Part shown: one piece after another, positions 17,168 to 17,240 of the stretch
Numbering within the stretch: position 1 is the first letter of the stretch
How the letters are laid out: each line of letters begins with the position of its first letter
From: Candidatus Heimdallarchaeota archaeon
GTDB lineage: Archaea > Asgardarchaeota > Heimdallarchaeia > JABLTI01
Direction: 5' to 3'
NCBI GenBank assembly: GCA_018238155.1
Contig: JABCTZ010000015.1
Coordinates: forward strand, 1 to 43,026
DNA: 43,026 nt
Notes under the pieces: generated by a model
Databases searched by the model: none
The model's input: the letters and a program-made list of their open reading frames with translations, nothing else
What the model was told of the DNA's origin: nothing
Position numbers and translations under genes: made by a program

Positions 17168-17240
17168 TACTTACTACCTAAGTGTGTCATTACCGAAATG
17201 AACTTCTAGCCCTTAAAGAAGAAGCGAGGGGCGTAGAATC
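17168..17240 (+). repeat. Boundary repeat R13 (long form)
   Basis: tacttactacctaagtgtgtcattaccgaaatgaacttctagcccttaaagaagaagcgaggggcgtagaatc; core 17204-17225. Confidence 0.92.

Follow-up and report, generated by a model that had tools for sequence, protein, structure and literature searches.

The window analysed here, a 43,026-nucleotide stretch of DNA from a Heimdallarchaeota genome (contig C33 of the 4.08-Mb, 46-contig genome G000), carries 15 clear copies of a short repeat, all on the + strand, 12 of which were spaced 0.14 to 1.4 kb apart within the first 9.7 kb (Table 1). The motif AAGAAGAAGYG, with at most one mismatch, occurred 21 times in the window against 2.2 expected, which places the family far above chance. 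Genes lying between the copies were found on both strands and encode VapB/PIN, DUF433/DUF5615, MNT/HEPN, TumE and ParE pairs, a GNAT protein and a prokaryotic RING protein, among others.

The copy at 17.2 kb spans 63 bp from ACCTAAG (start, 17176) to CGTAGAA (end, 17238) and contains ACTTA-n5-TAAGT, CTTCT...AGAAG and AAGAAGAAG, and GGTCT-tct-AGACC and GTAGA-t-TCTAC were found in sister copies. These motifs and their coordinates, reported in an initial annotation of this DNA, were borne out by direct reading of the letters. The ends ACCTAAG and CGTAGAA are not complementary. On inspection, all reading frames of the repeat were stopped or lacked a start, and a coding reading was rejected; the element was likewise not accepted as a C/D-box sRNA or as tRNA-like, since no boxes were visible and Rfam had no match. 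Rfam gave no match in the window at the gathering threshold, nor in 8600-9200 at E ≤ 1.

Table 1. Tail copies in the window and putative parts of the copy at 17.2 kb (position 0 is the C of CTTCTAG at 17203)
Feature	Positions	Strand	Remarks
Orphan tail core	141-162	+	
Orphan tail core	1080-1101	+	Diverged right side
Orphan tail core	1893-1914	+	Behind VapB/PIN pair
Orphan tail core	2875-2896	+	Behind DUF433/DUF5615 pair
Orphan tail core	3689-3710	+	
Orphan tail core	5077-5098	+	Without 23S-derived left arm
Orphan tail core	6370-6391	+	
Orphan tail core	7244-7265	+	Behind HEPN/MNT pair; two independent cassettes meet at 7284|7285
Orphan tail core	8070-8091	+	Behind GNAT gene
Orphan tail core	8209-8230	+	Degenerate
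Long orphan	8929-9088	+	About the last 130 nt of 23S (helices 99-101) and trailer arm; core 9058-9079
Orphan tail core	9717-9738	+	Behind ParE pair; final copy of the dense array
17.2-kb copy: copy of 23S gene end	17167-17193	+	Last ~25 nt; 90% identity to native G000 tail over -36 to -16
17.2-kb copy: copy of pre-23S processing stem 3′ arm	17194-17224	+	Segments ACC/ATGAA/TCTAG/TTA/GAAGAAG; 93-95% identical to native tail
17.2-kb copy: conserved core CTTCTAGNCCTTNAAGAAGAAG	17203-17224	+	Column identities 86-99%; best-preserved section of all orphan copies
17.2-kb copy: junction zone CGAGGG (+22 to +27)	17225-17230	+	Shared cassettes with differing right neighbours stop matching here
17.2-kb copy: weaker match to native trailer continuation (GTAGAATC...T-rich tract)	17231-17274	+	blastn
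Orphan tail core	22467-22488	+	Decayed; leader duplex -19.7 kcal/mol, the level of shuffles
Orphan tail core	28650-28671	+	Decayed

Further genes of the window include two with a eukaryote-flavoured product, a Bles03-family protein (18551-19171, + strand; PF08939, E 6e-30) and a protein whose N-terminal part is a RING finger (5185-6222, - strand; zf-RING_2 / Prok-RING_1). A 1.5-kb segmental duplication (23832-25357 and 27070-28623, 84% identity) carries a subtilase (Peptidase_S8) gene in each copy, and a second duplication (19244-19837 and 20228-20820) carries LRR genes. The open reading frame at 29418-32003 (- strand, 861 aa) consists of at least 17 tandem 75-bp (25-aa) units, matches Pfam DUF285 at 1001 bits and has a G+C content of 43% against 31% around it.

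The repeat and the 23S rRNA 3′ end

With the Rfam model LSU_rRNA_archaea (RF02540), 23S rRNA genes were located in the congeners G009 (C95:25794-29052), G010 (C20:9572-6184) and G005 (C98:98488-102769), and in all three the first copy of the repeat straddled the 3′ end of the gene. The native tail aligned to model positions 2778-2987, with the gene ending at ...CCUAAGCGUGUCAUUAC, and the left part of the repeat corresponded to three strands, which close helix 101, pair back into helix 99 and form the 3′ side of helix 1. In G000, the 23S gene exits contig C1 at model position 2717; C1 and C35 overlap by 127 identical bases, and C35 supplies the missing end of the gene together with the native tail and continues into C28 or C9.

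The copy at 17.2 kb was 90% identical to the native tail of G000 over positions -36 to -16, 93% over -15 to -1, 95% over 0 to +21 and 92% over +22 to +34. Similarity outside 17167-17237 was at background on both sides, and this segment is therefore the homologous span. By its sequence, it is an orphan copy of the 23S 3′ end, made up of the last ~25 nt of the gene and ~45 nt of 3′ trailer, the latter beginning at ~17194 and continuing rightward. Its gene-derived part comprises the closing strand of helix 101 (ACTTAC), a CACC-type strand (TACC here) and the 3′ strand of helix 1, which reads GTGTGTC in this copy and GCGTGTC in the native gene. In a blastn alignment, C35 568-677 and window 17168-17274 were 83% identical, and the downstream family of 17231-17274 was also found behind the copy at 2875. 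The left arm varied in length from none (the copy at 5077) to ~130 nt of 23S in the long orphan, which was 81% identical to the native tail on C35 over 165 nt (blastn).

In four species, the trailer is complementary to the 23S 5′ leader (...GGCCUCACUUCUUCAAGUGAAAUCUAGAUCUCCAUAGUAGGUUCCGACACGC), and the leader-trailer duplex reached -52 to -55 kcal/mol compared with -22.4 ± 4.0 kcal/mol for shuffled trailers. The pairings are GAAGAAG/CUUCUUC, UCUAGA/UCUAGA and, in helix 1, GCGUGUC/GACACGC, and compensatory changes follow AAGAAGAAG (GCGAG/CUCAC in G000 and G009 versus GUGUG/CACAC in G005). The helix of leader and trailer around 23S, with the native copy as its 3′ arm, corresponds to the processing stems of archaeal pre-rRNAs (PMC7038931, PMC10351888, PMC12918454). 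A canonical bulge-helix-bulge was not located in the predicted leader-trailer stem, in which small internal loops were seen; a 3-nt AAA bulge at +12 to +14 is a possible feature of the predicted stem. The strong primary-sequence conservation of AAGAAGAAG, already noted in the initial annotation, is explained by this native pairing, in which the stretch meets CUUCUUC of the leader.

The leader, which as the native partner of the arm at 17194-17224 lies 3.3 kb upstream at the real gene, is absent from the window, and the leader arm is single-copy in G000; the orphan tails, unlike archaeal processing stems, are therefore without a partner of their own. Their fit to the leader ranged from -59 kcal/mol (native-like) to -20 kcal/mol (the level of shuffles), with the copy at 17.2 kb at mid-range (-35.3 kcal/mol). 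In two other genera of a different family, represented by the closed genome G016 and by G012, no orphan tails were found: the 23S tail was unique, the sole other match being the inverted leader arm just upstream of the gene.

It could be asked whether the orphan copies act as RNA, either as 3′ processing or termination signals of cassette transcripts or as decoys that pair in trans with the 23S leader. The best orphans do retain a leader duplex of -45 to -59 kcal/mol, T-rich tracts lie behind many copies, and the native sequence is an RNA-processing element (PMC7038931, PMC12918454). However, the copies all point one way whichever strand the neighbouring genes use (about half run in the opposite direction), the single-copy leader arm leaves the cassettes without a processing stem of their own, and pairing is largely lost in many orphans, the 17.2-kb copy included. 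We therefore regard a role as RNA as very improbable. A variant in which the cassettes are RNA units between leader-like and trailer-like arms was rejected, the leader arm being single-copy.

A conserved block of ~150 nt was found behind many tails, in the window (1943-2000, 3747-3834 and 7284-7340), on G000 contigs C35, C28, C31, C5 and C9, and at locus L049. It consists of a T-rich tract, CCCTACAGTCTCAGGTGAGACTAGGGTTA (with the perfect palindrome AGTCTCA-GG-TGAGACT) and GGATCTAC, and ends at GTTAACTTGAAGAAGTAA. Because the block is also present behind the native 23S tail of G000 and of G009, it is probably the remainder of the native trailer with its terminator. A second GAAGAAG closes the block, and several copies differ past this point. 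We considered GTTAACTTGAAGAAGTAA, which ends the longer repeat class ~150 nt behind the core, as a second junction motif and did not adopt it, as several of the boundaries concerned are degenerate tails and similarity partly runs past the motif. Of 132 non-tail homology boundaries, 9 had GAAGAAG no more than 10 nt away (background, 0.5%).

Some further features of the rRNA genes were observed. On G000:C1, 16S (~70.4-71.9 kb) and 23S (from 134052) lie on the same strand ~62 kb apart, and the rRNA genes are thus unlinked. The 23S gene of G005 is ~1 kb longer than those of its relatives and contains a LAGLIDADG endonuclease open reading frame (L058:12718-13275), presumably within an rRNA intron. 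In G033, from another genus of the same class, two segments of ~300 nt on the same strand, 18 kb apart (C8:27759-28068 and C8:46367-46669), matched the final 250 positions of the 23S model, and the 5′ part of that gene lay on a separate contig; the arrangement resembles the orphan tails described here, with longer left arms.

Folding behaviour of the repeat

The initial annotation had described the element as an imperfect hairpin with attC-like geometry, in which AAG/CGT replaced the usual triplets of the R″ and R′ boxes. When four copies were folded as single-stranded DNA on both strands and compared with dinucleotide shuffles, z-scores were -0.25 to -1.66. For 112 distinct copies from seven genomes (78-nt unit), mean z-scores were -0.27 (+ strand) and -0.15 (- strand), at a mean minimum free energy of ~-5.5 kcal/mol. 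RNAalifold returned an empty consensus structure for both strands, and mutual information with average-product correction showed no coupling between left and right arms; the only couplings were short-range ones to the right of the core, which reflect subfamilies. The annotated helices, written out as two explicit structures on an alignment of 50 sequences, were paired in 58% of cells, compared with 55.6 to 57.5% after shuffling and 28 to 47% after sliding. In a genuine attC stem, near-complete pairing would be expected. The local symmetries are thus real but do not exceed chance for a 31% G+C sequence of this length, and the element does not fold on itself and is not a hairpin. Because the unit is half a stem, the annotated mini-hairpins are pieces of long-range helices.

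Folding of both strands and a covariation test had been proposed with the initial annotation, and they yielded neither a conserved fold nor covariation, the outcome which it had itself named as speaking against the structure; its remark that covariation was not convincing by eye was correct. Its sequence observations thus held, and the hairpin drawn from them did not. A structured RNA, one of the roles it had considered, survives in another form, since the element derives from one half of a long-range processing stem and is no self-folding unit.

A diverged attC site, recognized as a folded single-stranded hairpin by an IntI-like integrase despite altered AAG/CGT triplets, would agree with the spacing of co-oriented sites 0.6 to 1.4 kb apart around small cassettes, often of toxin-antitoxin type; the 12 copies in 9.7 kb, all on the + strand, are arranged between small cassettes as integron sites would be. 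Asgard integrons have moreover been reported, mostly without an integrase (PMC9668308). Against such a site stand the chance-level hairpin, the empty consensus fold and the missing arm covariation. A scan of the window for complementary RYYYAAC...GTTRRRY pairs 50 to 150 nt apart found none (1.2 expected), and the folding tests showed no R/L stem that could bear extrahelical bases, an unpaired central spacer or a variable terminal structure. No integron integrase was detected in the genus (TIGR02249; best score 48 bits against a cut-off of 265), AAGAAGAAG and its complement were absent from the supplementary files of PMC9668308 that list archaeal attC sites chosen for assay, and the 23S tail accounts for the whole sequence. 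We consider a diverged attC site extremely improbable, and a folded-DNA mechanism of the integron type is essentially excluded.

Arrays, modules and junctions

A profile search found 41 copies in G000, all in one orientation per contig; six congeners carry at least 100 copies. Copy direction was nearly uniform within each contig, and G005:C98 also has two reverse copies ~47 kb upstream of its 23S gene. Of 10 congeners, 8 had the core; it was absent from all 50 genomes of other genera of the class, and an exact-pattern scan of public genomes matched only one Heimdallarchaeota metagenome-assembled genome (MAG) and one contig labelled Pacearchaeota. The core was kept in 112 copies and the 23S-derived left part in only 67, although the conservation of the core looks inflated by the partial ascertainment of copies via the core; in copies selected by the left part, the core was almost always present too.

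The arrays start at the intact 23S gene and extend downstream in the orientation of the gene (G005:C98, G009:C95 and the G000 contig path C1 to C35 to C28 or C9). The G005 array occupies the sequence between the 23S end (102.7 kb) and the end of the contig (130 kb); in G010, considered as a candidate empty 23S locus, the contig ends 6 kb behind the gene. The modules carry toxin-antitoxin pairs and GNAT, RING, LRR, protease and transporter genes; the recurrent array families are cargo only (toxin-antitoxin, LRR, beta-propeller, SDR and ABC). All of the genomes are MAGs, 64 to 92% complete and broken at these repeats, and the window contig has no exact overlap with the 23S contig path. The ends of the window match the ends of other contigs at 96 to 97% identity (1-162 with G000:C2:3894-3733 and 42366-43026 with G000:C25:16268-16928), the assembly being broken within repeated array sequence.

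Shared cassettes had different neighbours, inside G000 as well as from one species to another. The HEPN/MNT block (6425-7284) was found again on C28 and in G009 and the GNAT block (7285-8097) on C31, and only in the window do the two adjoin (7284|7285); 8097|8098 is an in-window example of a junction at a homology end. G000 and G009 have the 23S end, the tail and a further 163 nt in common at 96% identity and then diverge. In all array sequence there were 18 distinct cases of a homology block that reached a tail; in 13 the block ended between +16 and +27, and 12 of these 13 ends fell at +21 to +27. The junction falls directly after AAGAAGAAG(YGNG), with several unrelated downstream families beyond it. 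Since homology blocks stop just past AAGAAGAAG, the tail belongs to the downstream end of each module, and tail variants move together with the cargo upstream of them. In cassettes paired on their cargo alone, the cargo itself had an identity of 0.76 and the left tail one of 0.77 to 0.81; the value was 0.89 in the 22-nt core and fell to 0.58 past +22, the partner being without the core in 15 of 70 comparisons. Neither the unit nor the crossover point has sharp limits on both sides, because the left boundaries of modules are diffuse (+41 to +160, often at gene ends) and one repeat class reaches ~+175.

As orphan copies sit at the right ends of modules stacked behind 23S, they can be read as att-like direct repeats that mark joints of insertion and reshuffling. 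We consider it probable that the orphan 23S tails, as copies of the gene end and its processing-stem arm, are the joints at which modules were inserted and are reshuffled. A search of ten congeners with the flanks of the 17.2-kb copy matched only the repeat itself and gave no orthologous site without the repeat.

A self-spreading element, such as a MITE or a palindrome-associated element of the IS200/IS605 type, might also be considered for a sequence that is short, multi-copy, intergenic and strand-biased and has a TTAC-like left motif. However, the copies have no terminal inverted repeats or subterminal hairpins, they are restricted to arrays behind 23S rather than dispersed, no Y1 transposase was found in five genomes, and the sequence is the host's own rRNA tail. 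Such an element is in our view hardly credible here.

Joining of modules and parallels with known systems

Tyrosine recombinases (PF00589), serine recombinases (PF00239), Cas1 (PF01867) and Y1-HUH proteins (PF01797) were searched for in five genomes, and none was found on any array contig; all genes of these families lay on other contigs. No tail copy was located within 1.5 kb of any tyrosine recombinase gene. G000 has only two tyrosine recombinases, one of them XerA-like, and both scored at most 38 bits against TIGR02249 (cut-off 265). The XerA-like protein (G000:C8:50428) occurs throughout the genus at a length of 351-360 aa. At the proximal end of the G005 array, housekeeping genes and the LAGLIDADG intron open reading frame inside 23S were found, and no integrase. 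On the short contig G005:C5, an open reading frame for a tyrosine recombinase (150-602) is cut by the contig start, and a link to an array is possible; no tail copy was present in the 1.85 kb examined beside it.

From the position and conservation of the joints, we infer how modules may be joined. Modules would be inserted at the 23S end and leave tails behind the gene as att-like direct repeats. A candidate sequence-specific recombinase would act in trans on the double-stranded core CTTCTAGNCCTTNAAGAAGAAG, and crossover would take place at +22 to +27, just 3′ of AAGAAGAAG. We give such a recombinase about an even chance. A trans-acting enzyme is favoured because the junction zone is common, the core is conserved beyond the cargo and the rRNA-derived arm, and tail and cargo are inherited together. 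The initial annotation had also considered a recombinase substrate and sequence-specific binding. This part of its interpretation may stand, with the copies at the joints of shuffled modules as possible sites of sequence-specific recombination; the folded attC-like site with altered triplets falls away.

Alternatively, the orphan tails may be passive scars and portable homology, and modules may move by general homologous recombination with no dedicated enzyme, by unequal crossing-over, by excision and re-entry of circles or by double crossover after DNA uptake. Homologous recombination between repeats is the mechanism proposed for 'additive' flexible genomic islands. Repeats of 70 to 200 nt at 80 to 95% identity suffice for it, and it would be in line with array contigs devoid of recombinase genes, with repeat extents that vary from -130 to +175 and diffuse left boundaries, and with the graded decay of the fit to the leader from -59 to -20 kcal/mol. 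Nevertheless, homologous recombination or gene conversion should homogenize the left part at least as much as the trailer, whereas identity was 0.89 in the core and 0.52 to 0.77 in the left part. The right junction moreover falls in the same 6-nt zone across several species and downstream families, and tail variants travel with upstream cargo without mosaics. General homologous recombination is for us a rather unlikely explanation, and joining by a trans-acting recombinase remains the reading that we prefer.

Repeated insertion at the 3′ ends of stable-RNA genes is best documented for tRNA and tmRNA genes, and Dehalococcoides has ssrA-anchored tandem islands. In the tycheposon islands of Prochlorococcus, later arrivals push earlier ones outward and leave scattered partial tRNAs (bioRxiv 10.1101/2020.12.28.424599). 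By analogy, the layout of the arrays is of the kind that successive insertions at the 3′ end of such a gene leave behind. Like tRNA and tmRNA islands, the arrays begin at the intact gene, contain co-oriented partial copies of its 3′ end and differ in content between close relatives. Unlike in those islands, the target is the 23S end with its processing-stem arm, the modules are as small as 0.6 to 1.4 kb with 40 to >70 joints per genome, and no integrase or remnant was found in array units of the five genomes or on any array contig.

Archaeal integrons have been published, are enriched in Asgard archaea, were found via attC structure models and are described as folding canonically (PMC9668308). 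The present arrays resemble those of integrons (sedentary chromosomal integrons, CALINs and archaeal integrons; Ghaly et al. 2022, PMC9668308) in being long and one-directional, with small, toxin-antitoxin-rich modules, a site at the downstream end of each module and a junction at the far edge of the site; the integrase is absent, as in most archaeal examples (PMC9668308). In contrast to integrons, the site is no hairpin, has no R/L boxes and is a copy of a host gene end, the genus is without IntI, and about half of the genes read against the array. Joining by a recombinase in trans would have a parallel in integron cassettes that lack an integrase or in the cargo-only remnants of tRNA-anchored islands.

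Taken one step further, the arrays might represent an integron-like gene capture of the Heimdall group, in which a putative enzyme outside the four searched families recognizes the core CTTCTAGNCCTTNAAGAAGAAG, joins cassettes 3′ of GAAGAAG and uses the sole 23S end as a landing pad. We put this forward only tentatively, and with the same reserve suggest that the cassettes would be small and promoter-carrying and that the core would have been borrowed from the 23S processing-stem arm. Mobile DNA of the Heimdall group beside an rRNA gene has been described in HeimM2 ('Ca. Heimdallarchaeum'), where one 8-kb element with a homing-endonuclease-like gene lies between the 16S gene and a tRNA (Wu et al. 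2022, PMC8813620). Both that element and the arrays lie directly beside an rRNA gene and carry an LRR protein, but the arrays consist of 23S-tail repeats and are not a single element.

We found no published description in the literature of arrays bounded by 23S tails. As the sites are no exotic attC hairpins, integron finders that rely on structure are not expected to detect them, and tail arrays behind 23S account for the poor assembly of rRNA-proximal regions in these MAGs. The joint is pinned down: the end of a host rRNA gene and the arm of its processing stem form the repeated seam of arrays of 40 to >70 modules, whose cargo comprises toxin-antitoxin, surface and hydrolase genes, in a lineage near the origin of eukaryotes. 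If a dedicated enzyme exists, the arrays would represent a second, independent invention of cassette capture; if there is none, a conserved rRNA tail would serve as portable homology for gene flow between species.
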